From the IMG/VR virus record IMGVR_UViG_3300032236_001082, positions 32,001 to 96,000 of that record: 64,000 bases of DNA. One strand, written 5' to 3'. Under the pieces are notes generated by a model. It searched no databases, had not been told where the DNA came from, and was given only the letters and a program-made list of their open reading frames with translations. A program made the position numbers and the translations under genes. Source of the DNA: a virus. Of this stretch, positions 278 through 54,402 are shown one piece after another (the first letter of the stretch is position 1; every line of letters begins with the position of its first letter).

Positions 278-299
278 TGTCAGTGGTACCTGCTACAAT
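278..299 (+). promoter_or_regulatory. Early promoter: TGTCAGTGG element + extended -10 TGcTACAAT
   Basis: One of 8 copies with TGTC starting exactly 16 nt before the -10 hexamer. Confidence 0.75.
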
Positions 300-333
300 A
301 TAACCCTCAAACCCGATAGAAAGAAGAAAACAA

Positions 334-591
334 ATGACAGTACAACATAACTTAGAAACCTCAAACTGGTTGGCATTCCCGTTCGAAGTTGACGGCATTA
401 ATTATGTCTCAAAAATCAAGCCTGATTCTGCTATGGCTAAGCGTGTGGCAGGTGTGCCTGCTACAGTATTCGTCTCGCTTAACGCTGATTGTGTTCGTGA
501 ACTTATTGGCAAGGCAACTCGTGAAGAGGCTCTCTCTAAACTAGAATTTATCAACGCAGGTGCTAGTGAAGCCGTTATCGAAATTGTCTGA
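334..591 (+). CDS. Hypothetical early protein
   Basis: ORF with AGAAAG RBS downstream of promoter motif. Confidence 0.75.
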   Translation: MTVQHNLETSNWLAFPFEVDGINYVSKIKPDSAMAKRVAGVPATVFVSLNADCVRELIGKATREEALSKLEFINAGASEAVIEIV

Positions 592-698
592 GCAAGTTAG
601 AAGAGTCCAAGAGTTGAGGCGTAGTAATGCGTCTCAACCTCTTAGGAATAAAAAGAAATATACCCGTAAACAAAAACACAAGAAAGCAGAATACTAAT

Positions 699-956
699 AT
701 GTCAAATATCTCTACCGCCCTCGAAATTCAACAAGCATGCACTCAGTCAGTCTTTAATGATGAAAATCTAATTATTGCTGCCGAAATTGCAAACGCTACA
801 GATTTTAATCCTGAAGTGATGGCTTTGCTCCTTAAGTACTCCGCAAGTTTAACGGCGGACGTTGCAACTCGTGTAACAACAATTTTAATGCCTCATGATG
901 AAATCCAAGCAATGATTTCAGAATTGCAAGAAGTGGAGGCATTCGATGTCAACTAA
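699..956 (+). CDS. Hypothetical early protein (start moved to ATG 699)
   Basis: AGAAAG RBS before ATG 699; upstream extension is A-rich leader. Confidence 0.65.
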   Translation: MSNISTALEIQQACTQSVFNDENLIIAAEIANATDFNPEVMALLLKYSASLTADVATRVTTILMPHDEIQAMISELQEVEAFDVN

Positions 957-1131
957 TGTGCACACTGAATTGATCCAAAATGCATTAGGTGTCACGGAAG
1001 ACGTGGCCCTACGTGTACAGGATGAGATTAACACTTATTATAATTTAGATTGGTCCGAAGCAACTCCTGCAGAGATTAATTTTATTTCGCATGCAGCTTT
1101 TGAAAGCTTGAATGTAACGCATCAATTTTAA
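946..1131 (+). CDS. Hypothetical protein
   Basis: GGAGG RBS, overlaps previous gene. Confidence 0.65.
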   Translation: MSTNVHTELIQNALGVTEDVALRVQDEINTYYNLDWSEATPAEINFISHAAFESLNVTHQF

Positions 1132-1185
1132 TTGCGACGGGTAGAGAGATGACGGTGGGTCCAGGGGTGGGCCCACCGTTCTACA

Positions 1186-1230
1186 CGACACGCCCGAGTG
1201 GGCGCGGGCTGTCCGAAATGTCCGTTTTGT
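1186..1230 (+). repeat. 45-bp GC-rich intergenic repeat, copy 1 (CGACACGCCCGAGTGGGCGCGGG...CCGAAATGTCCGTTTTGT)
   Basis: Near-identical to 3250-3294; partial copy at 2152-2169. Confidence 0.85.
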
Positions 1231-1231
1231 C

Positions 1232-1247
1232 TGTGAGGTTTATCACA
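1232..1247. promoter_or_regulatory. CRP/GlxR-type box TGTGA-N6-TCACA
   Basis: TGTGAggtttaTCACA perfect match. Confidence 0.7.
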
Positions 1248-1296
1248 CAGTTTGAGCGTCTCAAAATATGAAATTACTGGCTAGTAAGTAGAATAA

Positions 1297-1318
1297 TGTC
1301 AGTGCCTTACGATATAAT
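1297..1318 (+). promoter_or_regulatory. Early promoter: TGTCAGTG element + TATAAT
   Basis: Fixed 16-nt offset motif upstream of ORF 1354. Confidence 0.7.
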
Positions 1319-1353
1319 ATCCGTATTAAGCAAAAAGAAAGAAGGTAGTCACT

Positions 1354-1575
1354 ATGGCTAATCTATATAATATCGAGTCCCTACTAATTGGTAAATCTTA
1401 CTACTCAGTTAATCGTAAAGGTTTAAGTGGAATTATCCAAGATGCTGAAAAGCGTTCAGATGTCTATTTCGACAAAGCAGATGCTTATTTAGTTCGTGTT
1501 CGCCCCGTATATAAAGGCGACGGGATTTTCCGTAACGATTTCTACGCAACAGTAGCAGTTCAGGTAGGTGAATAA
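1354..1575 (+). CDS. Hypothetical protein (possible SH3-like fold)
   Basis: ORF track; AGAAGG RBS. Confidence 0.7.
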   Translation: MANLYNIESLLIGKSYYSVNRKGLSGIIQDAEKRSDVYFDKADAYLVRVRPVYKGDGIFRNDFYATVAVQVGE

Positions 1576-1691
1576 TGCTTAAAGAAATATTTATATGCGA
1601 TAATTGCGATACTCTCGCCACAGTGTCAGTGGTATCTGATACAATAACTATCTCACAATGTCAATGCCTTACCTTAGATTGGAATAACTAA
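1575..1691 (+). CDS. Cys-rich microprotein (38 aa) with embedded promoter at 1624-1645
   Basis: MLKEIFICDNCD...QCQC; TAATG coupling on both sides. Confidence 0.5.
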   Translation: MLKEIFICDNCDTLATVSVVSDTITISQCQCLTLDWNN

Positions 1692-1906
1692 TGACTAACT
1701 ATAAAATCACAGTAACCTATGACTCTAATCCCGCTCCAGACTTTAGTTTCCAATACTCAGATGAACTACAAGCACACAAAGAGTTTGCTAAGTTTATTGA
1801 CTGGGGATTTGCTGACGAATACTCAACAGTTAATCTATACACGCCAACAGGCAAGTGTTATACTAAAATATTTTATCGTGAAGGAAGAAAGGTAGTGGAG
1901 AAATAA
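1691..1906 (+). CDS. Hypothetical protein
   Basis: ORF track; coupled stop/start. Confidence 0.7.
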   Translation: MTNYKITVTYDSNPAPDFSFQYSDELQAHKEFAKFIDWGFADEYSTVNLYTPTGKCYTKIFYREGRKVVEK

Positions 1907-2121
1907 TGGCTAAGCACCCACCCGTAGGATCAGCTAACTGGCATAATCTATTTATAGATGAGAAAGTGTCTGTATATCAAGATGGTAACGATGACATATT
2001 TTATAAGGTAGTTATCAAGGGTTCCCGCCCTAAGTATTTCTACAATGAAACAGCCCATAGCGATGTCTCTCGCTATTGCGCTGATGAACTGGGCATAAGT
2101 TACTGGTCAGTACTAAACTAA
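1906..2121 (+). CDS. Hypothetical protein
   Basis: ORF track; GGAG RBS. Confidence 0.7.
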   Translation: MAKHPPVGSANWHNLFIDEKVSVYQDGNDDIFYKVVIKGSRPKYFYNETAHSDVSRYCADELGISYWSVLN

Positions 2122-2133
2122 ATAGAATTGTCG

Positions 2134-2149
2134 TGTGAGGTAAATCACA
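2134..2149. promoter_or_regulatory. CRP/GlxR-type box
   Basis: TGTGAggtaaaTCACA, upstream of TGGACA-18-TAAAAT promoter (2171-2200). Confidence 0.7.
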
Positions 2150-2233
2150 CACGACACGCCCATAGTGGGTTGGACAAAGGTTGGCTCACTATGGTAAAAT
2201 ACCACCTATAACAACAACAGAAAAGGAAACAAA

Positions 2234-2404
2234 ATGACCGATACAACAGCAAAGAAGACCTACGCAGTAGGCGACCTATTCACCACTCAGAAGTCAGGTG
2301 TAACAGGCACTATCAAGGAAATCAACCCTATCAGCGCAAGCACAACCCGTGTTTTGCTTGATGTAAATGGTGAAGACCGCTGGACAACAGCAGTATTTAA
2401 CTAA
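2234..2404 (+). CDS. 56-aa microprotein, paralog of 3009-3179
   Basis: Hand-translated; GDLFTTxKxGVTG motif; AGAAAAGG RBS. Confidence 0.75.
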   Translation: MTDTTAKKTYAVGDLFTTQKSGVTGTIKEINPISASTTRVLLDVNGEDRWTTAVFN

Positions 2405-2492
2405 TTATTAAATCGGCTACCCCTCACCAATGTCGGTGGGGGGTGCTATAATAACTCTCTCAAACCAACCCGAATAGAAAGAAGAAAAATAA

Positions 2493-2909
2493 ATGGCTCG
2501 TAGTATCACAGTAAAGGTGGCAACACCAAAGGTAATCGCTGCTCTCGAAGCAAAGTTAGTCCAACTTAAAACCGATAAGGACAACGAAGCAAGCAACGAA
2601 GCAAAGCATCAAGAGGCTCTAAAGAATTGGCGTAAGGAAATTGGCGAGTATGCTATTGCTAATTTTGCTAAGGCTGAAAACCTCCGTACAAATTATCGCT
2701 CTTGGAATAAAACTCTCAATGTAGATTTTGACCTCACAGTAGCAGAAGGTAATTTCCCTGCTGAACCACAGCGTGATTTCACAACTATTCACGACCACAC
2801 TTATCGTGAAATGGTAGAGGAAATTAACAACGCCCTCAACATCTTAAAGATGACCGACGAGGAAACAGTTAATGCTTCTACAATGAAGTCTATCGCTCAG
2901 TATCTCTAA
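2493..2909 (+). CDS. Hypothetical early protein
   Basis: ORF track; promoter 2431-2452 and AGAAAG RBS. Confidence 0.8.
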   Translation: MARSITVKVATPKVIAALEAKLVQLKTDKDNEASNEAKHQEALKNWRKEIGEYAIANFAKAENLRTNYRSWNKTLNVDFDLTVAEGNFPAEPQRDFTTIHDHTYREMVEEINNALNILKMTDEETVNASTMKSIAQYL

Positions 2910-3008
2910 ATAAATAATCGAAACAGGGGCAGTTTGAGAGTGTTCTCGCCCAATGTCGTAAGTAATAACTCTCACTATAATTAAAAACCCGAACAGAAAG
3001 AAAAAGCA

Positions 3009-3179
3009 ATGACACTACAAGGATACACATATCAAATCGGCGATCTATTCACAACATCTAAAACAGGTGTAACAGGTCGCATCACTAACTTCTCGCCAAT
3101 TAACAACAAGGTAACTCGTGTTTCGTTAAAGCTGGCAAATGGCGCACATCGTTTTGCTATGGTTAAAACAACTAAGTAA
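3009..3179 (+). CDS. 56-aa microprotein, paralog of 2234-2404
   Basis: MTLQGYTYQIGDLFTTSKTGVTGRI...; AGAAAG RBS. Confidence 0.75.
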   Translation: MTLQGYTYQIGDLFTTSKTGVTGRITNFSPINNKVTRVSLKLANGAHRFAMVKTTK

Positions 3180-3249
3180 ATAAATATTGTGTGGGTTCGC
3201 AATGATACCCGAGTAAGAGTGCCGTAGTCGGTACCACCCACACTATTTG

Positions 3250-3294
3250 CGACACGCCCGAGTGGGCGCGGGCCGCCCGAAATGTCCGTTTTGT
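3250..3294 (+). repeat. 45-bp GC-rich intergenic repeat, copy 2
   Basis: Near-identical to 1186-1230. Confidence 0.85.
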
Positions 3295-3309
3295 AACGAC
3301 TCTCCCATA

Positions 3310-3339
3310 TTGACATAACCCCTACAGATAGGCTATAAT
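3310..3339 (+). promoter_or_regulatory. Consensus sigmaA promoter TTGACA-18-TATAAT
   Basis: Exact hexamers. Confidence 0.75.
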
Positions 3340-3345
3340 TTTCAG

Positions 3346-3447
3346 ATGATAGCAGCCCTAGTATTAGTCCCGCTTGTGATTATTCTCACACCCGCTGTAA
3401 TGCTGCTCGGAATTGTCCTATTTGTGAAGACTCTCCGTATTAAATAG
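3346..3447 (+). CDS. Leaderless 33-aa hydrophobic (TM) peptide
   Basis: MIAALVLVPLVIILTPAVMLLGIVLFVKTLRIK; ATG 6 nt after TATAAT. Confidence 0.45.
   Translation: MIAALVLVPLVIILTPAVMLLGIVLFVKTLRIK
3375..3390. promoter_or_regulatory. CRP/GlxR-type box
   Basis: TGTGAttattcTCACA. Confidence 0.65.
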
Positions 3448-3508
3448 ATTTGACTAATGTCAGTGGCATATGTTAGAATAAGGCTTCAATAACAGAAAGT
3501 AGGTTCAT

Positions 3509-4540
3509 ATGAACAACACCGCTCATAAATCAGAAGTAGAGAATGGTTCTGTATCATTCGCTCTTGTTGATTCCCGCTCTAATCCTGCATGGCACTCTTA
3601 TGCGAATAAGATTTTTGATGCAGATACAGAAACCCCGACAGTATCAGAAATTATGGATGCTGCTAAACTATCTAATTGGAATGTATCTCTTGAGCCTGTC
3701 TCAGAATTGGTTCCAGATTATACAATGGTAACAGAATCTTATCTTGTTACACGTGACAATCCTTATACAGCAGGACAGAAAGATGTTTTGTCCGTCGTAG
3801 GCTCACGCTACAAGGCTGTACAGAATGAAGATTTGTTTGCGTTTGCACAAAATCTTCACGATTCTAACCCTGATGTCAAAATTGACAGTGCAGGTTCTTT
3901 CAAGAATGGTCGTGTAGTTTATGGCTCTTGGTCAATCCCTAATCAACTTGTGCTTGACCCACAAGGTGCTAACGATGCAACTAATTTGTATCTTGTTGTT
4001 CATACGTCACACGATGGCTCGGTAGCGATTCAAGCAGGAATTACACCTGTGCGTGTTAAGTGCCAGAATACACTTAACTTTGCAATGAAACGTGCTAAGC
4101 AATCTTTCAAGATTCGACACACCGCAACAGTGGATGGAAAAATTGCTGCTGCACGTGAGGCTCTAGGAATGTCGGTTGCGTACTTTGATGAGTTCTCTAA
4201 GCAAGCAAACGAATTGTTTGAGCGTGAGGTTACTAACTCTCAATTCTCAAAAATCATCAACACACTTTATCCTAAGCCTGAGAGTGACTCTAAGGGTGCT
4301 ATCACTAAGTGGGAAAATAAGGTTGTCCTGCTTGATGAGTTGTACCACAACTCTCCTACTAACGCTAATATCAAGGGTACAGCGTGGGGCGTTGTTAATG
4401 CTCTCACCGAACGCCTAGACTATTATCGTACAGCCCGCAAGGGTGGCGAATCACTCGCTTATTCTGCTAGCGGATTTGACCCCGTTATCACAGCAGAAAA
4501 AAATAAAATTGTTAAGCAGGTTCTTTCACTAACCGCTTAA
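3509..4540 (+). CDS. DUF932/DUF945 phage-plasmid protein
   Basis: AWH, VG.RY..VQN, SHDGS, TPVRV.C.NTL, IRHT, GTAWG..NALTE motifs. Confidence 0.88.
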   Translation: MNNTAHKSEVENGSVSFALVDSRSNPAWHSYANKIFDADTETPTVSEIMDAAKLSNWNVSLEPVSELVPDYTMVTESYLVTRDNPYTAGQKDVLSVVGSRYKAVQNEDLFAFAQNLHDSNPDVKIDSAGSFKNGRVVYGSWSIPNQLVLDPQGANDATNLYLVVHTSHDGSVAIQAGITPVRVKCQNTLNFAMKRAKQSFKIRHTATVDGKIAAAREALGMSVAYFDEFSKQANELFEREVTNSQFSKIINTLYPKPESDSKGAITKWENKVVLLDELYHNSPTNANIKGTAWGVVNALTERLDYYRTARKGGESLAYSASGFDPVITAEKNKIVKQVLSLTA

Positions 4541-4545
4541 TAAAT

Positions 4546-4577
4546 TGGGAGGGCGAAAGCCCTCCCACTCTTTTTTT
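4546..4577 (+). terminator. Intrinsic terminator
   Basis: TGGGAGGGC-GAAA-GCCCTCCCA followed by T-run. Confidence 0.9.
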
Positions 4578-4589
4578 ATTTGGAGGATC

Positions 4590-4694
4590 ATGTCAGCTCG
4601 AATTGTAATATGTAATAAATGTAAAAAAGAAATTGAAGTGCGATCAAAATTTGCACACGACACTTTAAATAATCACTTGACAAAATGCAAATAA
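4590..4694 (+). CDS. 34-aa C2HC/BED-like Zn-finger microprotein
   Basis: MSARIVICNKCKKEI...NNHLTKCK; GGAGG RBS. Confidence 0.55.
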   Translation: MSARIVICNKCKKEIEVRSKFAHDTLNNHLTKCK

Positions 4695-4882
4695 TTTGGC
4701 GCGGGTAGAGCGGTCATATCTTTTCTAAAAAGTCAATTACGATAGAGGTAAAAATCTCCCTGGAATATAGACAAAACCTGATCATATGTCCAAGCTTTAC
4801 GATCAAACAAGTATATGCTGTATGGACAAATGTCAGTGGGGTATGGTATTATATGACCCTAATTACGAACAAAGGATATAAA

Positions 4883-5557
4883 ATGCCAAACTGGGTATAT
4901 AATGGATTAACTGCACAAGGTCCAAAAGAATCTGTGTATAAGATGAAAGAGCAATTGAATACACCTTTTGTAGACTATATAGAGGCTACAGGTGATTTGG
5001 CTTATGGTATTAAGCAGACTAAGTATTCTAATCCCGTCTTTTCTTTCCGTAACATTATCGCCCCCACCAATCTTGAAGAATATAAGAAGCAACCTTTTAC
5101 TTTTAATGGTGATGAACGTACTGAGAATCCTGATTCTTGGTATAACTTTAATATCCGTAACTGGGGTGTTAAATGGGATGTAGCCGTATCTAATGATAAC
5201 GAGCATCCTGAGACATATATGGAAGAGTTTGAGGATGAATGGACTGCATCTGTATACTATAACTTTAATACTGCTTGGGGTATTCCACTACCTGCCTTAA
5301 CTACATTGTCATCTCAGTATCCCGACCTTTTGTTTACTTTGTCTTACGAAGAAGAAACTGGTTGGGGCGGAGAAATGGAACTGCTACGAGGTGTGGTAAT
5401 CAGTGATAATCAGTATGGCTGGAAGTGTCGTGAGTGTGACCACACCGAGGAAGACACACCTTACTGCGAAGAGTGCGAATACGATATGTGTCCAAAATGT
5501 GGGTGGGGAGAACCATCAGAAACCTGTGCGGTACATAAGGAAGAGGTGAATGCATAA
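4883..5557 (+). CDS. DUF1281/Api92-like ferredoxin-fold protein with C-terminal CxxC motifs
   Basis: MPNWxxN, WYxxNxxNWGxKWD, FxTAW motifs. Confidence 0.75.
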   Translation: MPNWVYNGLTAQGPKESVYKMKEQLNTPFVDYIEATGDLAYGIKQTKYSNPVFSFRNIIAPTNLEEYKKQPFTFNGDERTENPDSWYNFNIRNWGVKWDVAVSNDNEHPETYMEEFEDEWTASVYYNFNTAWGIPLPALTTLSSQYPDLLFTLSYEEETGWGGEMELLRGVVISDNQYGWKCRECDHTEEDTPYCEECEYDMCPKCGWGEPSETCAVHKEEVNA

Positions 5558-6159
5558 TGGATCAAAGCTGGAATAAGTATACACACGTATGCCATACTTG
5601 TGATGCCTTAATTGAATATACCTCTACCAGAAATGTGACAGACATCACATGCGAATGTGGCGGGAATACCGTACTTTTGTCAGTGGCTGGTGCTACAATA
5701 CTCCCTATAACCGATAAGAAAGAAGAAGCAATGGAAACCACAACTACCGTCCCACAGACAATTACTCTTGACTGGGTTGAGAATGATGTCACCAAGACAA
5801 CCACATATACTGAATCAGATATTCGCAATATGGTTTGGCAGAACAAGAATCTTTATTCAAAGCAAAACGAGTACTACCGCAAGGAATCACAACTCCGTAC
5901 TTTGCTTGAAGAGGTTTATGCTGACTCATCAGAGCAGGACACACTTGCTCAGATTGCAGAAATCTTTGATGTATCATTAACTAAGGAAATCGAAGTTACT
6001 GCTTGGGTTCGTGTTGACATGGTTATCGAAGTTGACATGGCTGAAGGCGACTACGACATCGAACAGTTGGTTTCTGATAACTTGACTATTGATTCATATG
6101 GTTCAGAGATTACAGTTAACAACCACGAGATTGACCGAGTAGAGGAAGGTGCATATTAA
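5557..6159 (+). CDS. Hypothetical; N-terminal Zn-finger part, internal promoter (5678-5699) and second start at 5731
   Basis: ORF track; internal TGTCAGTGG promoter and AGAAAG RBS before ATG 5731. Confidence 0.7.
   Translation: MDQSWNKYTHVCHTCDALIEYTSTRNVTDITCECGGNTVLLSVAGATILPITDKKEEAMETTTTVPQTITLDWVENDVTKTTTYTESDIRNMVWQNKNLYSKQNEYYRKESQLRTLLEEVYADSSEQDTLAQIAEIFDVSLTKEIEVTAWVRVDMVIEVDMAEGDYDIEQLVSDNLTIDSYGSEITVNNHEIDRVEEGAY
5634..5649. promoter_or_regulatory. CRP/GlxR-type box
   Basis: aaaTGTGAcagacaTCACAt. Confidence 0.7.
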
Positions 6160-6334
6160 TGGCACGTACTAGTTTTATCTCAGGCACGGTTTACGAAGTA
6201 AACTATCCAGATGGTCAGGAAGACCTTTTGGAACAGGCTTACAATGCATTTTGGGATTTTGGAGCAGAGATGCCAGAAGGCTTTGAAATCTACGAATCAG
6301 ATGTTACACATTTTTGGGAAGGAGAGACAGTTTA

Positions 6335-6544
6335 ATGTCTATTTACACAGTTGATGCTGGTTCCCGCCAAACGGCGGGAGCAATTATGATGGAGGCTTGG
6401 AAGTATGGCATAGAGGTAGAACACCTATATGGCAACCAGGTAGAACTATGTTCGGGTAATGAAGAAAAGCTGGATTTAGTTATTAATAAGTTTGCAGGTA
6501 TCAAAGTACTACATAAAGAACTAATTAAGGAGATCTTTGAGTGA
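6335..6544 (+). CDS. Hypothetical protein
   Basis: ORF track, ATG start with GGAG RBS. Confidence 0.6.
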   Translation: MSIYTVDAGSRQTAGAIMMEAWKYGIEVEHLYGNQVELCSGNEEKLDLVINKFAGIKVLHKELIKEIFE

Positions 6545-6701
6545 ACGAGTTAATTGAATATATTAAGTTACATCTAATTAGTTTAGAACAAGACCTAGAT
6601 GGTGAAACAAATGACTATGACATTAGTTATATCCAAGGGGCTATAGATGCCACTGGACACATACTTGACACAGCCAAGACATATATGGTAGGATAACGCC
6701 C

Positions 6702-7061
6702 ATGAATATAACACCACAAGAACGTATGGACCTACTGCTAGATATCAATGTCAGTATGACTAAGTATACTGATTCCAATGGGTCAGATTGGCGTCCCGCC
6801 ATTCAAGACTATGTAACCTATCATACACTACGCAATATGTATGAGGATGACTACAGCGAACTTAAGCCGTACACACTATGGCGTAAGAAACCTGATGAGA
6901 TTATGCTTAGCATAATTAATTCCACACAACTATTCACAATTGACTTTGGGTGGGAAGACCTACACGAATCAATCCGTGAGTGGCTAATCGAAGAAGAATT
7001 CATCGTAGATGCCGATGAAGCAAGTGAAGAAGAATACAAACAACTAATGGAGGAGATGTAA
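6702..7061 (+). CDS. Hypothetical acidic protein
   Basis: ORF track. Confidence 0.7.
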   Translation: MNITPQERMDLLLDINVSMTKYTDSNGSDWRPAIQDYVTYHTLRNMYEDDYSELKPYTLWRKKPDEIMLSIINSTQLFTIDFGWEDLHESIREWLIEEEFIVDADEASEEEYKQLMEEM

Positions 7062-7062
7062 C

Positions 7063-7257
7063 ATGGCAGCAAAGAAGACAGCAACAGAGACAGCAGCACC
7101 AACAGTCCCAGCACGTGAGTTCCTAGTATCAAAGGGCTTTAAGCCTGGTGCACGTGGCCGCTTTAGCACTGAGATGGTAAAGGCACTGCAGGATGCAGGC
7201 TATCCAATTAAGGCACCAAAAGAGCGTTCAAAGGTTACTTCGGTCCCTTTAGCGTAA
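7063..7257 (+). CDS. lsr2: Lsr2-like DNA-binding domain protein; possible -1 frameshift extension to 7445
   Basis: AREFLxxKG..PGARGRFS AT-hook-like RGR motif. Confidence 0.65.
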   Translation: MAAKKTATETAAPTVPAREFLVSKGFKPGARGRFSTEMVKALQDAGYPIKAPKERSKVTSVPLA

Positions 7258-7460
7258 ACCCTTACTTCGAACTGCCCCCGATCCGAGTATCACGTACACT
7301 GTACGGGCTCGATAGGTTGGGGGCACGTATCGGGTATGTAATGTGCGGGGATTGCAAATTGCACATGTCCTATTGCAATTGCGACGGGGGAGTAAAAGCT
7401 CCGTCTCAAATAGTGAAAGCACTTGATAATCTAGTACGACTATGATAGAATGGGGGACTT

Positions 7461-7712
7461 ATGGCTATCAGTATAAATCAGAAATATGTTAAACAGACTA
7501 ATGATATGTTGCTTAACGCAGAGGCTAATTTAGAACTAATTGCCACTCAGTTAAACACACTACCTGCCCGAGAGCAGAACAGATTGTTTAGGATTATCCT
7601 AAGTTATATAGACATTGTTTCTAATTCTAGAAACGCTGGTATGAAGGATATGATTAACCTATCTAAAGATATAATGGACACCGTAAATCTATACTATGAG
7701 GAGAATCAATAA
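7461..7712 (+). CDS. Hypothetical protein
   Basis: ORF track. Confidence 0.65.
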   Translation: MAISINQKYVKQTNDMLLNAEANLELIATQLNTLPAREQNRLFRIILSYIDIVSNSRNAGMKDMINLSKDIMDTVNLYYEENQ

Positions 7713-8098
7713 TGGGAGCCCGAGTTAACTTTGTATTTAAGACAGAATTAGATAAGCCTAACATTGTGCTATATAGCCACTGGGGTGAAACTACGTGGCG
7801 TGAGGATTTGGCTATGGCTATTGCTAAGTCACAATCCCGCCTCAAATTGGGTGATACCTCATATGCCACCCGCATTATCATGTCACAGTTGATTGGATCA
7901 GATTGGGATTCAGAGACGGGATATGGAATTCACCTAGCAACAGATGAAGAACTAAATGAAGGTATGTTTGACTTTTGGGTAGAGATTGATATGACTACTC
8001 AAATGGTTAATGATTCAGGGCATTGGCATTCATTTGAATCATTCAGGGAATATCACCTTGAAGAGATGACAGCCAACCATTCATTTGACAGCATTTAA
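7712..8098 (+). CDS. Hypothetical phage protein (MGAR...YSHWG type)
   Basis: ORF track; GGAG RBS. Confidence 0.75.
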   Translation: MGARVNFVFKTELDKPNIVLYSHWGETTWREDLAMAIAKSQSRLKLGDTSYATRIIMSQLIGSDWDSETGYGIHLATDEELNEGMFDFWVEIDMTTQMVNDSGHWHSFESFREYHLEEMTANHSFDSI

Positions 8099-8120
8099 TA
8101 TGCAATGGTATAATAATAAA

Positions 8121-8200
8121 ACGAGATAGGGCGTTCAGGCTTTCTGCCAAGTCCATTATAAGACCCCTTGGGATTCGGGACCCAGGGGGTCTTTTCTTTT
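8121..8200 (+). ncRNA. Candidate ~80-nt small RNA
   Basis: TTGACA-18-TATAAT (8085-8114), no ORF, terminator 8160-8200. Confidence 0.5.
8160..8200 (+). terminator. Intrinsic terminator
   Basis: AAGACCCCTTGGG...CCCAGGGGGTCTT + T-run. Confidence 0.85.
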
Positions 8201-8519
8201 GTCCACATATGTCCGTTATGTCCTATTTCGCGCGTATATATTTATTTTGGTAAGGATTACGAAGGGGGTCAAAAATCTCCACGACTTTTTGGGCGGGACA
8301 TTACGATGGCAGCTTAAAATCTCCAAACAAGTACTGGTATAAACACCTATATAAAATAGATCAATAATCAAACAAAACATATATAAAACTAAAGAAACAT
8401 AATCACAATTGGACAATATGGTAGACATTCTGTCTATTTTTGTCCATATTTGTGAGTGTGACCAAATATGACCATATATTGACCATATAACACTTGACAC
8501 ATATAATTTTATATGCACA

Positions 8520-8629
8520 TGTGGATATAGGCTGTGGATAACTTTATATGGATTTGACATGCATAATATTATGTGGTTTATTACATGTATCTAATATCTG
8601 TGGATAACATGTGTATAAATTGTGGATAA
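8520..8629 (-). promoter_or_regulatory. Cluster of DnaA boxes (origin-like)
   Basis: TGTGGATAA at 8533, 8599, 8621; TGTGTATAA at 8610; TGTGGATAT at 8520. Confidence 0.7.
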
Positions 8630-8640
8630 GGGTGTATATA

Positions 8641-8670
8641 TTCTCCACTATGCTCCACTATACTCCACTT
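8641..8670 (-). repeat. 3 x GTGGAG at 10-bp period (MraZ-box-like)
   Basis: aaGTGGAGtataGTGGAGcataGTGGAGaa on - strand. Confidence 0.6.
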
Positions 8671-8927
8671 TAAAAGGGTCTAGGAGCCTGTATGAGAGGT
8701 TATCTATGCGTGATTGATATAGGATATGGCGGGATTATGAACAGTCTGTGCAATAATTCTCAGCCCTAAGATGTTCTGAAACACGATATATGGCTGTACC
8801 ACAATGAGCACATCTTAATTCTATAAGGTCAGATTGCTCCAATTTAATCTTAAATGATCTGGTATAGTATAGCTTTGTTATATACCATATGGCTAGGAGT
8901 TCTAATATCATTCAATCCCCCGCCCTA

Positions 8928-9098
8928 TTACAAGTCTTCTTTATCAATATCTTCTTCCAGATCCAGATCATATTCCCACATAGTTCCCCATCGAATATGT
9001 GGCTTTAGGAATATAGCAGATATTCTCCCGCAAATATTACCTATTATATTTAAGATCGGATTGTCCGATCCTTGTACTTTGTTCCAGTTTTCGCTCAT
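8928..9098 (-). CDS. Small hypothetical protein (56 aa)
   Basis: Hand-translated MSENWNKVQGSDNP...EEDIDKEDL. Confidence 0.45.
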   Translation of the reverse strand: MSENWNKVQGSDNPILNIIGNICGRISAIFLKPHIRWGTMWEYDLDLEEDIDKEDL

Positions 9099-18798: not shown

Positions 18799-19068
18799 TT
18801 AATTAAAAGGACTTTTCGGTGCAGGGACATATTTTATTCCTTCTATTTCACATCGAACCCCAAAGGATTCTATCAACTGTCTACAAAGTAACAAGTACTC
18901 CATGATATCTGCTCTCTTATCAATTTCGTATTGCATTATGTTTTCTTCGTATACAGTCAAAGCTAGATAGTTTGGACGTGCTCTTACGTCCATCTTAAGA
19001 TCCTTTACTGGCATCTTAACGTTTCGTATGGCTTTTGCCATAGCTACATTATAAAATATTTTTTCCAT
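18799..19068 (-). CDS. Hypothetical protein
   Basis: ORF track. Confidence 0.65.
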   Translation of the reverse strand: MEKIFYNVAMAKAIRNVKMPVKDLKMDVRARPNYLALTVYEENIMQYEIDKRADIMEYLLLCRQLIESFGVRCEIEGIKYVPAPKSPFN

Positions 19069-19369
19069 GGATTTTCTTTAAAGTATTCCAAGTTTCTGCG
19101 CTTTTGTGCAAATTGTTTTGCTTATCTATGCGCCCTAGATCCATGAAGATTCCTCCACGTACACCAAATTCTTTATTAGCAACGCCTTCTTTATAGCATT
19201 GCTTAATAACTGGACAACTCAAACAAACTTCGTCTGCAGTTTGTGCCATGATCTTATCGTTTTCGTAATCATCATAAAACCAATTGATGTTCATCCCAGC
19301 ACATGCTGCTAGGTGGTACCACTTTAGATCTTCCGCATCAATTCCTAATGACTTAAGTATATTTGACAT
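19049..19369 (-). CDS. whiB: WhiB family transcription factor
   Basis: W...AAC...C..CPV...C...GVRGG. Confidence 0.9.
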   Translation of the reverse strand: MSNILKSLGIDAEDLKWYHLAACAGMNINWFYDDYENDKIMAQTADEVCLSCPVIKQCYKEGVANKEFGVRGGIFMDLGRIDKQNNLHKSAETWNTLKKIHGKNIL

Positions 19370-26788: not shown

Positions 26789-26862
26789 TGGAACAGCTCG
26801 GACTTGAACCGAGGATTACCGAATTATGAGTTCGGGGCTTTAACCAACTAAGCTACTGTTCC
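26789..26862 (-). tRNA. tRNA(CAT) (Ile2 or Met)
   Basis: CCGAA-CTCATAA-TTCGG. Confidence 0.88.
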
Positions 26863-26864
26863 TT

Positions 26865-26941
26865 TGGTAGAATGTTTGCGAATTGAACGCAACTCTAGGG
26901 AGGATATAAGCCACCACCTGACCACCAGCCAGCCACATTCC
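26865..26941 (-). tRNA. Atypical tRNA-like gene, anticodon TAT (Ile)
   Basis: Acceptor GGAATGT/ACATTCT+ACCA, T arm TTGCG-TTCAATT-CGCAA, loop CTTATAT. Confidence 0.65.
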
Positions 26942-53667: not shown

Positions 53668-53908
53668 CCTGCTCATCTTCTTTCTTTAGAGGTGGGAAAC
53701 CAAAACCAGTCTTAAACTTTTTAGTATTCTTATCTGCCAAGTGCTGGTATAGCAACATCATTCTGTCTGATATTGCAATTATAGCATCTAGGTCTTCCTT
53801 TTGTAAAGCTAAGTCCATTGCGTGTTCTAATATATTTAAAGATAAGTTTAACGCATGTTTTGCTTCTTTATTTAGTTTATTATTCTCTACCACTCTGGTT
53901 GTTTCCAA
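53648..53908 (-). CDS. Hypothetical protein
   Basis: ORF track. Confidence 0.55.
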   Translation of the reverse strand: METTRVVENNKLNKEAKHALNLSLNILEHAMDLALQKEDLDAIIAISDRMMLLYQHLADKNTKKFKTGFGFPPLKKEDEQDGSDED

Positions 53909-54402
53909 ACTGGGACAAAAGCCCCATCGTTATCCTTGACGTATAATATTGTTTCATTACGTAGTAAAGCTTCTAGTTCTACTTTACTAGGAATATTGCT
54001 AGCTGTTACAGCCCCGTCGTTTCTAGGTCTGCCTATATGAACTGTTTTAAAAAATTCTCTAATATTTCTAATATCTTCATCGGTGAAATAATATCTACCT
54101 AATTTATTTTTATCGTCTAAAGCATGGGCCTGTTGAGGCTTAGGTATATCACCAGATCTTAAATGTCTCTTAATCGTATCAACATGTCGGTTGATAAGCT
54201 TTCCTACTTCTGAAATAGAATAAGCGTGTTTTTTATTTTTCTGCACATCTGTGTAGTTATAAGCCACACGCTTATCCCGAACAAAATCCCAGGCAATCAC
54301 AGTATCTTCAGTTCTATTAACTTGAAGTGCTTTGTGAAGGGAGTCGTTTAAGTAGAAATACAATAATCGGCGTTCAGCTTTCTTTCTTGATTGTTTAGCC
54401 AT
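53887..54402 (-). CDS. MerR-like HTH DNA-binding protein
   Basis: YSISEVGKLINRHVDTIKR....G.IP.P...RYFT.EDI. Confidence 0.75.
   Translation of the reverse strand: MAKQSRKKAERRLLYFYLNDSLHKALQVNRTEDTVIAWDFVRDKRVAYNYTDVQKNKKHAYSISEVGKLINRHVDTIKRHLRSGDIPKPQQAHALDDKNKLGRYYFTDEDIRNIREFFKTVHIGRPRNDGAVTASNIPSKVELEALLRNETILYVKDNDGAFVPVWKQPEW

Follow-up and report, generated by a model that had tools for sequence, protein, structure and literature searches.

In the virulent Bacillus phage phi29, boxes for the host regulator Spo0A lie at promoters and at replication origins, and the promoters of cyanophages carry boxes for the host regulators NtcA and PhoB, of which NtcA belongs to the CRP family. Plasmid and phage origins that depend on DnaA (P1 oriR) are known as well, as is the datA sink, and the principle of titrating DnaA in the manner of datA is well established. 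Here we analysed a window of 64,000 nucleotides of viral DNA (IMG/VR record IMGVR_UViG_3300032236_001082, bases 32001-96000 of 112,158 bp; negative coordinates count nucleotides before the window start), in which sites resembling those of five or six bacterial regulators lie upstream of early promoters (1186 to about 5700) and in a composite element (8200-8700) where the early genes end. The likeness to phi29 is in host-regulator sites at early promoters and at a putative replication origin, by which development would follow the state of the host; the differences are another host phylum, five or six regulators instead of one, an activator-like placement with helical phasing and an oriC-like DnaA element, all of them predicted from the sequence. 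With the cyanophages the present phage shares phage genes apparently placed under host global nutrient regulators without detectable homologues in the phage itself, but theirs are single boxes at auxiliary metabolic genes, whereas here combinations of boxes extend across the whole early block. A literature search turned up no description of WhiA, PafBC, CRP or MraZ-type sites on actinophage DNA. The novelty lies in the breadth, as five or six regulators are combined, in the exact WhiA 8-mer that holds a fixed place at promoters, and in the composite of DnaA and MraZ-type sites, which is widespread. Control of promoters by host factors together with an origin-like module is the best combined explanation and in our judgement a rather probable one; the start-up of the phage would then probably be tied to the physiological and cell-cycle state of its host.

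Sites and published recognition sequences

All genes of the phage are encoded on the minus strand except those in one plus-strand block of 15.6 kb (-5368 to 10210), which consists of small open reading frames (ORFs) of mostly unassigned function; the motif sites lie inside this block and at its downstream end. Expected counts were derived from dinucleotide-preserving shuffles of the 64-kb window. The original prediction had assigned sites to CRP/GlxR, WhiA, BldC, DnaA and MraZ. All of them were recovered at their places, every one far above the shuffled background, and the assignments were upheld by exact or near-exact matches to published sites. The sequence TGTGA-N6-TCACA, which is the GlxR consensus (PMC7999487), occurs in four perfect copies at 1232, 2134, 3375 and 5634 (0.05 expected), and a fifth copy 1560 nt before the window brings the genome total to five against 0.2 expected. 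Three copies of CGACACGCC start at 1186, 2152 and 3250 (0.02 expected), and two more occur in reverse orientation shortly ahead of the window; its 8-mer GACACGCC is present six times in the genome against 0.55 expected. Letter for letter and in a genome of 38 % GC, this 8-mer is the Mycobacterium tuberculosis WhiA/WhiB2 consensus, which was obtained by ChIP-seq and in vitro IDAP-seq for WhiA and by ChIP-seq for WhiB2 (PMC13473873).

The repeat TGTCC-N4-TGTCC was found at 1210 and 8210 (0.06 expected), in both cases with a third TGTCC or TGTCT 9-10 nt further on. BldC binds head-to-tail direct repeats of 9-10 bp, each of which has an AT tract and, at 4 bp from it, a C-G pair, and reads the AT tract by its shape; for the whiI promoter, the optimised sequence is TGTCCGAATTGTCCGAATTG and its unit AATTNNNN(C) (PMC5859096). 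Where the phage repeat at 1210 departs from this site (Table 1), it does so in the AT tract. The high-affinity DnaA box TTATCCACA (PMC8287927) occurs at 8533, 8599 and 8621, always on the minus strand, and nowhere else in the 112-kb genome; together with boxes of one mismatch at 8520 and 8610 this amounts to five boxes in 110 bp. The minus-strand array GTGGAG-N4-GTGGAG-N4-GTGGAG at 8643-8668 (one copy, 0.00 expected) fits exactly the formula of the MraZ-binding repeats of Bacillus subtilis, three GTGG[A/T]G units with 4-nt spacers, a triple that in the B. subtilis genome is present only upstream of the mra operon (bioRxiv 10.1101/2022.02.09.479790). A sixth class extended the initial list of motifs: the recurrent phage promoter TGTCAGTGG-N7-TAnnnT corresponds to the PafBC motif of 'sigma adaptation' promoters, tGTCgg-N10-tAnnnT without a -35 hexamer (PMC8635444). 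Its phage form TGTCRG-N10-TAnnnT was matched eight times where 0.93 matches were expected; every match is a plus-strand one in the interval 278-6770, and seven immediately precede ORFs. In their layout, including the lack of a -35 hexamer, the phage promoters agree with the PafBC promoters; they differ in that they would drive phage early genes and bear CRP-type sites upstream.

Arrangement of the sites in related phages

Related phages were represented by 26 loci that were fetched via the 128-aa protein encoded at 7712-8098. The sites proved to be conserved and enriched in them. In eight low-GC relatives, perfect CRP-type palindromes were present in one to six copies per 13-20 kb (0.03 or less expected), GACACGCC in up to 11 (about 0.1 expected), TGTCCGWWW in up to nine (about 0.7 expected), DnaA boxes in up to six (about 0.3 expected) and GTGGAG pairs in one or two (none expected).

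Positions were counted from predicted transcription starts, set 7 nt after the -10 hexamer. The centres of the palindromes cluster at -54.5, -64.5, -74.5, -84.5/-85.5 and -95.5. Two residue classes modulo 10 contain 33 of the 44 CRP-type centres (p = 6e-15) and, for PafBC-type promoters alone, 20 of 28 (p = 6e-9); after the sample was halved as a crude correction for orthology, p was still 5e-5. In the present genome five sites were scored, four perfect palindromes and a copy with 9 of 10 matches that precedes the window by 1285 nt; their positions are -64.5, -64.5, -84.5, -85.5 and -103.5. A manual count for the palindrome at 2134 from the promoter-like site 2171-2200 gave about -65.5. The class I centres of Escherichia coli CRP used for comparison are -61.5, -71.5, -82.5 and -92.5, and the offset of 3 nt may be due to the assumed start point. 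With CRP/GlxR class I sites the phage palindromes have in common the 16 bp of dyad symmetry and the location on one helical face upstream of a predicted promoter. The arrangement of palindrome and promoter at 1232-1318 recurs in the relatives L003 and L007, the whole arrangement at 2134-2200 is kept in L003, and a promoter with 12 of 12 consensus positions (3310-3339) follows directly downstream of the repeated element at 3250-3295.

Among 33 unique copies of the box GGCGTGTC, 12 have their first position at -46 and four more at -47 or -45; in these 16 of 33 copies the box occupies about -46 to -39, which leaves 3 nt before the -35 hexamer. In the cryo-EM structure from Streptomyces, WhiB on region 4 of sigma-A and the C-terminal domain of WhiA sit just upstream of -35, and strand and spacing vary among WhiA/WhiB targets (PMC10243135). 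Two properties of WhiA/WhiB2 sites were found in the phage box, the GACAC core with the 8-bp consensus, identical to GACACGCC of the M. tuberculosis regulon, and the placement upstream of -35. Its distance of 3 nt is closer than that at sepX in the Streptomyces system (PMC10243135), and it further differs from WhiA/WhiB systems in being located on the DNA of a phage that carries a WhiB of its own. An orthologous promoter in six phages has kept the palindrome, GGCGTGTC, the -35 and the -10 hexamer while the intervening sequence diverged; the palindrome lies either 10 or 20 nt from GGCGTGTC, that is, with a shift of exactly 10 nt. The L003 orthologue of the GACACGCC element at 1186 is inverted, which indicates that the element acts on DNA and not on RNA, and a nut-like role at the RNA level was rejected on this ground.

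In relatives, boxes are also packed edge to edge (L024:2120-2160; L024:98-200; L002:4168-4207); in one case 30 nt contain a DnaA box together with GTGGAG and GACACGCC, and in another two CRP-type palindromes enclose two DnaA boxes. Such combinations suggest a shared combinatorial vocabulary.

The composite element at 8200-8700

This region follows the point at which transcription of the last plus-strand early gene would end, a terminator with its stem at 8160-8193 and a T-rich tail that extends to about 8203, and small minus-strand ORFs (8735-8911 and 8928-9098) are located downstream, so that it lies between convergent units if these ORFs are real. Its parts are, from first to last, a set of three TGTCC units, a pair of ATTACGA repeats, AT-rich DNA, the promoter-like site, a pair and a triplet of DnaA boxes and the GTGGAG triple (Table 1). 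The sequence TTGTCCACA at 8199 is a DnaA box with one mismatch, of the type used by high-GC actinobacteria. GTGGAG repeats are paired with DnaA boxes also in L003, L010, L011 and L024, and a scan of IMG/VR for CTCCAC-N4-CTCCAC-N25-55-TGTGGATAA returned at least 120 contigs with 31-42 % GC, against about one expected by chance according to our own estimate. Among the matches listed, the composite is almost always 73 or 61-63 nt long. The order of array and boxes seen in the window was found in eight more contigs, five of which share the whole layout. The main family has GGTTTGG repeats, ATTACGA, three CTCCAC units with a 10-nt period, an AT-rich spacer of 36 nt that ends in a nearly invariant ATCAGTAAGAT, and two tandem boxes; a third DnaA box follows about 40 nt beyond the tandem pair, often within the spacer of a TTGACA promoter. 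Small plus-strand genes upstream and a minus-strand gene downstream form the conserved surroundings, and Pfam searches with the conserved neighbours of the module gave only a weak hint of GIY-YIG/T5orf172.

Several properties point to replication. Regions of the oriC type have at least two co-oriented DnaA boxes that are similar to TTATCCACA, and among the five boxes of the window three are perfect and three are co-oriented with an 11-nt period. In the main family, adenine recurs at intervals of 3 nt between -7 and -25 relative to the first box, with frequencies of 0.96, 0.96, 0.94, 0.88, 0.88, 0.75 and 0.71, and at least five consecutive NAN trios in frame are present in 84 of 104 modules and in none of the control frames. 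The published search rule for the basal unwinding system (BUS) of bacteria asks for at least three NAN DnaA-trios within 16 nt of a box and by an AT-rich tract (PMC8287927), and the main-family modules agree with it. Their AT-rich side is 5' of TGTGGATAA. The DNA unwinding element of E. coli lies on the corresponding side of box R1. The composite thus resembles the oriC BUS in its tandem co-oriented DnaA boxes by an AT-rich stretch and, in the main family, in the NAN trios (PMC8287927); it differs in belonging to a phage that has DnaB, primase and DnaE but no recognisable initiator, and in the GTGGAG array and ATTACGA repeats at its flanks. Most likely, 8200-8700 is the phage replication origin or its control region and uses host DnaA; we consider the chances of origin function about even. 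The original prediction had described the DnaA and MraZ-like sites as poorly placed to regulate the neighbouring genes, which is a fair description, but they are not loose sites and form one conserved composite.

An alternative function of 8200-8700 is the control of transcription, either by a promoter that is activated via GTGGAG/CTCCAC and throttled by DnaA, or by a transcript in which GGAG/CUCCAC repeats act as RNA. Hints of a promoter exist: a TATAAT-like hexamer that lacks a -35 hexamer often follows 18 nt after the last CTCCAC of the main family, the spacer of the TTGACA promoter contains the third DnaA box, the promoter-like site 8479-8507 of the window reads through the boxes, and a consensus promoter with a terminator just upstream resembles a small RNA gene. 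The TATAAT hexamer is not universal in the family, however, and no Rfam family matched. Between the two types of module the order of boxes and array is swapped with their strand relation kept, which fits binding of proteins to DNA better, and tandem boxes with a trio-like periodicity are a hallmark of origins. We regard this alternative as fairly unlikely.

The GTGGAG array shares with the mra (dcw) promoter repeats the three units with 4-nt spacing. It differs in lying off a dcw promoter, in a phage without dcw genes, in its coupling to DnaA boxes and in the invariance of positions 5-6. Since the array is not at a dcw promoter and lies between convergent units, it was classified as MraZ-like and not as a member of the class.

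All relatives (L001-L011, L024) have repeats of ATTACGA or TTTACGA with AAAATCTCC-like tails near promoters and next to the GTGGAG array. Possible roles are those of iterons for a phage initiator or of sites for a protein that switches from early to middle genes. Upstream of the composite, a promoter with 12 of 12 consensus positions (TTGACA-18-TATAAT, 8085-8114) overlaps the end of ORF 7712-8098 and is followed about 45 nt later by a strong terminator; the pair, 8085-8203, looks like the gene of an untranslated RNA of about 80 nt. The body of this putative RNA and the position of its hairpin are kept in L003.

Candidate regulators for the sites

Pfam models applied to the complete phage detected no DnaA, HTH_Crp_2, cNMP-binding, MraZ, WhiA-HTH or WYL domain, and Pfam and PHROG searches of the early block revealed no recognisable regulator among dozens of small ORFs without assigned function. 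Because early genes fire before phage proteins exist and homologues were not detected in the phage, host factors are the likeliest readers of the sites, in the first place CRP, WhiA with WhiB, and PafBC. From the observed sequences, their enrichment, conservation, positions and phasing we infer the identity of the binders, activation or repression by them, and origin activity. The DnaA boxes would very probably be read by host DnaA and the palindromes quite likely by host CRP; PafBC at the PafBC-type promoters and WhiA/WhiB at the GACACGCC boxes are each somewhat less certain, though still probable. For the GTGGAG array host MraZ is a tentative candidate; the form of the units fits MraZ, with a dedicated phage protein as the alternative reader. 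Host BldC at the TGTCCG repeats is more doubtful still; the MerR-like protein of the phage (Table 1) is an equally good candidate. A partnership of the phage WhiB with host WhiA at the GACACGCC sites is possible.

The proposed mechanism comprises two systems. From 1186 to about 5700, control cassettes would act upstream of early core promoters, which are of two kinds: the PafBC type with a -26 element TGTCRG and a -10 but no -35 hexamer, and the ordinary sigma-A type. Upstream of these cores, a CRP/GlxR-type palindrome would be presented on one helix face at about -54.5, -64.5, -74.5 or -84.5, accompanied by a GACACGCC box, often exactly at -46 to -39 and 3 nt from -35, and by BldC-like TGTCCG repeats. 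Early transcription would thereby depend on the cAMP status of the host, on its cell-cycle regulators and on a single-stranded-DNA alarm. At 8200-8700, the composite conserved in the family at the end of the early block would serve as an origin or control region driven by host DnaA, its GTGGAG array being bound by host MraZ or by some phage protein. The idea of host-state sensing in the original prediction thus received support in silico from the motif matches, their conservation and enrichment and the lack of detectable phage homologues. If it is true, infection by abundant freshwater actinophages is linked through many regulators at once to the nutrient status, the DNA-damage signalling and the cell cycle of the host, well beyond the single-regulator precedents of phi29 with Spo0A and the cyanophages with NtcA or PhoB. 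The sites on the phage would be compact natural test substrates of high affinity with which to study the regulators of uncultured actinobacteria, since no other access to the regulons of these bacteria exists. The composite of at least 120 contigs is a candidate for a new type of origin, and its pairing of sites points to a link of replication initiation with the division regulator MraZ. A farther-reaching version, in which the oriC-like DnaA module joined to an MraZ-type operator and the early promoters with WhiA/WhiB, CRP and PafBC sites in a large family of lake actinophages gate start-up and replication of the phage and by titration feed back on host initiation and dcw expression, appears distinctly unlikely.

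A number of observations weigh against control by host factors or against an origin at 8200-8700. The starts from which the positions were counted are predictions from the sequence. ORFs of the early block without known function could encode site-specific binders. The TGTCCG repeats may be read by the phage MerR-like protein rather than by host BldC: the nearest folds to its AlphaFold model (pLDDT 77) were RacA, HiNmlR and BldC (6ama_B), with high fold probabilities and weak E-values, and a sequence search of the PDB gave no significant match for it. In the GTGGAG units of the phages, AG at positions 5-6 is invariant in more than 100 contigs, unlike the sampled mraZ promoters. The latter were upstream regions in about 44 genomes that were reached via one metagenome-assembled genome (MAG) titled 'Actinomycetes bacterium', are of unconfirmed taxonomy and do not include a confirmed host; all have GTGG or GTGT with a 10-nt period over the promoter and variable positions 5-6. 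A trio pattern was not evident beside the DnaA boxes of the present window, and in L001, L002, L004 and L007 the array and TTACGA repeats are accompanied by CRP-type palindromes in place of the DnaA boxes. GC skew showed no origin signal and tracked the coding strand only.

Part of these observations would be explained if the boxes were operators for phage-encoded proteins whose likeness to host motifs is coincidental or convergent, with an early repressor at the palindrome, the MerR-like protein at TGTCCG and an initiator or loader at GTGGAG and ATTACGA. The dozens of early small ORFs without Pfam or PHROG function leave room for such proteins, the conserved MerR-like winged helix-turn-helix protein with its fold nearest to RacA and BldC is one at hand, the GTGGAG units are stricter than the mraZ-promoter repeats of the sampled genomes of unconfirmed taxonomy, and the ATTACGA repeats have no known host reader. 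Against this stand the five or six motifs that each match a different published host consensus, including the GC-rich GACACGCC in a genome of 38 % GC, the requirement of early promoters for factors present at the moment of infection, an activator-like phasing that a simple repressor operator does not predict, and the absence of a CRP, WhiA, MraZ, DnaA or WYL fold in the Pfam searches. This explanation is unlikely in our estimate.

The original prediction had also proposed a decoy, in which amplified phage DNA soaks up DnaA, MraZ, CRP, WhiA and BldC and disturbs initiation and division of the host. The location of the DnaA/GTGGAG element between convergent units, where no adjoining gene obviously needs it, would suit this purpose, and consensus sites multiplied about 100-fold would be expected to bind some factor. 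A sponge, however, needs only number and affinity. No more than three perfect DnaA boxes and a single GTGGAG triple are present per genome, DnaA boxes are lacking entirely in some relatives, and the CRP-type and GACACGCC boxes are locked to promoters and helically phased. In more than 100 contigs the composite agrees nucleotide by nucleotide in spacing, order and flanks, which is needless for a sponge, and its architecture and synteny are fixed in at least 120. Geometry in a datA-like decoy would be of no consequence; here it is strictly conserved. The fixed, phased positions and the fixed composite fit promoter control and an origin-like element, and titration as the main purpose was left without support and is very unlikely. 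Recombination modules of promoter plus stem-loop or small mobile repeats, comparable to the T4-type early-promoter stem-loops, would account for the near-identical 45-nt copies at 1186 and 3250, the inverted orthologue in L003 and the variable gene order among relatives, but they are extremely unlikely, as the short boxes alone are conserved while the intervening sequence diverges, their positions are promoter-locked with 10-nt phasing, and the boxes equal published recognition sites of proteins.

Within the mraZ comparison, 20 small low-GC genomes (L258-L277, about 1 Mb) have a nearly invariant mraZ promoter, TTGCAA-17-TATAAT. It is overlaid by GTGT/GTGG units with a 10-nt period that continue through the leader to the GTG start.

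The phage and its host

The virus record has 112,158 bp with 37.7 % GC and a terminal repeat of 123 bp and was rated complete. Its genes include those for DnaE, a DnaB-like helicase, a Toprim primase, RecA, eight tRNAs, a WhiB-like protein and many 2OG oxygenases; the virus is uncultured and probably a lytic-looking lake actinophage of 112 kb. The WhiB-like protein and an Lsr2-like ORF indicate an actinobacterial host; the latter was judged by eye from its sequence and has no Pfam match at E 0.01 or better. The host lineage is probably a low-GC freshwater actinobacterium. Megablast against GenBank phages gave zero matches to near-identical phages, tblastn with one large protein of the tail region gave a weak match to a Pelagibacter phage only, and the phage glutathione peroxidase was uninformative as a host marker with about 50 % identity across many phyla. 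Sampling around one MAG titled 'Actinomycetes bacterium' and in a mixed phylum sample reached no confirmed acI-type host. Among the genomes reached were some of about 1 Mb and 31 % GC, perhaps Actinomarinales-like, and none of our conclusions depends on genomes flagged as unpublished. A look-up of RNA sequencing runs listed none. The 100 nt with the lowest GC content (5 %) are located at -5160 to -5060 (genome about 26,850-26,940) and code for an Asn/Ile-rich low-complexity linker; the linker is part of a secreted-looking protein encoded where the plus-strand block starts. As a candidate origin, this tract about 5150 nt before the window was rejected for its being such a coding linker.

Features of the window

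Table 1. Regulatory sites and related genes in the 64-kb window (strand: +, plus; -, minus;., palindromic)
Feature	Position	Strand	Remark
PafBC-type promoters	278-299, 1624-1645, 2431-2452, 3458-3479, 4831-4852	+	motif match
CGACACGCC (WhiA/WhiB2-type 8-mer GACACGCC) with GC-rich extension	1186-1209	+	copy 1 of repeated intergenic element
BldC-like TGTCCG direct repeats, 9-nt period	1210-1231	+	17 of 20 positions identical to optimised whiI site over 1210-1229
Perfect CRP/GlxR-type palindrome	1232-1247	.	centre at about -85.5 from predicted start of promoter 1297-1318
PafBC-type hybrid promoter TGTCAG-N10-TATAAT	1297-1318	+	precedes ORF 1354-1575
Palindrome 2134-2149 abutting CGACACGCC 2152-2160	2134-2160	+	upstream of promoter-like site 2171-2200
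Second, near-identical copy of element: CGACACGCC, GC-rich stretch, ATGTCCGTTTTGT	3250-3295	+	
Perfect CRP-type palindrome in 33-codon ORF	3375-3390	.	centre at about -103.5 from PafBC-type promoter 3458-3479
Perfect palindrome 5634-5649 with PafBC-type promoter 5678-5699	5634-5699	+	centre at -64.5; both inside frame 5557-6159
Three TGTCC units, 9-10 nt period	8199-8225	+	first inside TTGTCCACA (at 8199)
Two ATTACGA...AAAATCTCC repeats, iteron-like	8257-8330 (8257-8283, 8300-8330)	+	third copy 4736-4765
Promoter-like site TTGACC-17-TATAAT, 11 of 12	8479-8507	+	reads into DnaA boxes; kept in L250, L254-L257
DnaA-box cluster	8520-8629	-	pair 8520, 8533; co-oriented triplet 8599, 8610, 8621 with 11-nt period; 3 of 5 perfect
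GTGGAG-N4-GTGGAG-N4-GTGGAG	8643-8668	-	formula of MraZ-binding repeats; 13 nt beyond DnaA triplet
WhiB-like protein	19049-19369	-	Pfam Whib, E 6.5e-11
MerR-like winged helix-turn-helix protein, 171 aa, conserved	53887-54402	-	fold comparison

Some promoters of the early block overlap predicted frames. Two short Cys-rich, zinc-ribbon-like frames (1575-1690 and 5557-5730) each hold the complete PafBC-type promoter of the next gene, and the frame 5557-6159 probably represents two genes, with the real start of the second at 5731. The called ATG at 4853 of the frame 4853-5557 abuts the -10 hexamer of the promoter 4831-4852; the true start is probably at 4883, where the homologues in L001, L002, L004 and L007 begin (MPNWVYNGL...).

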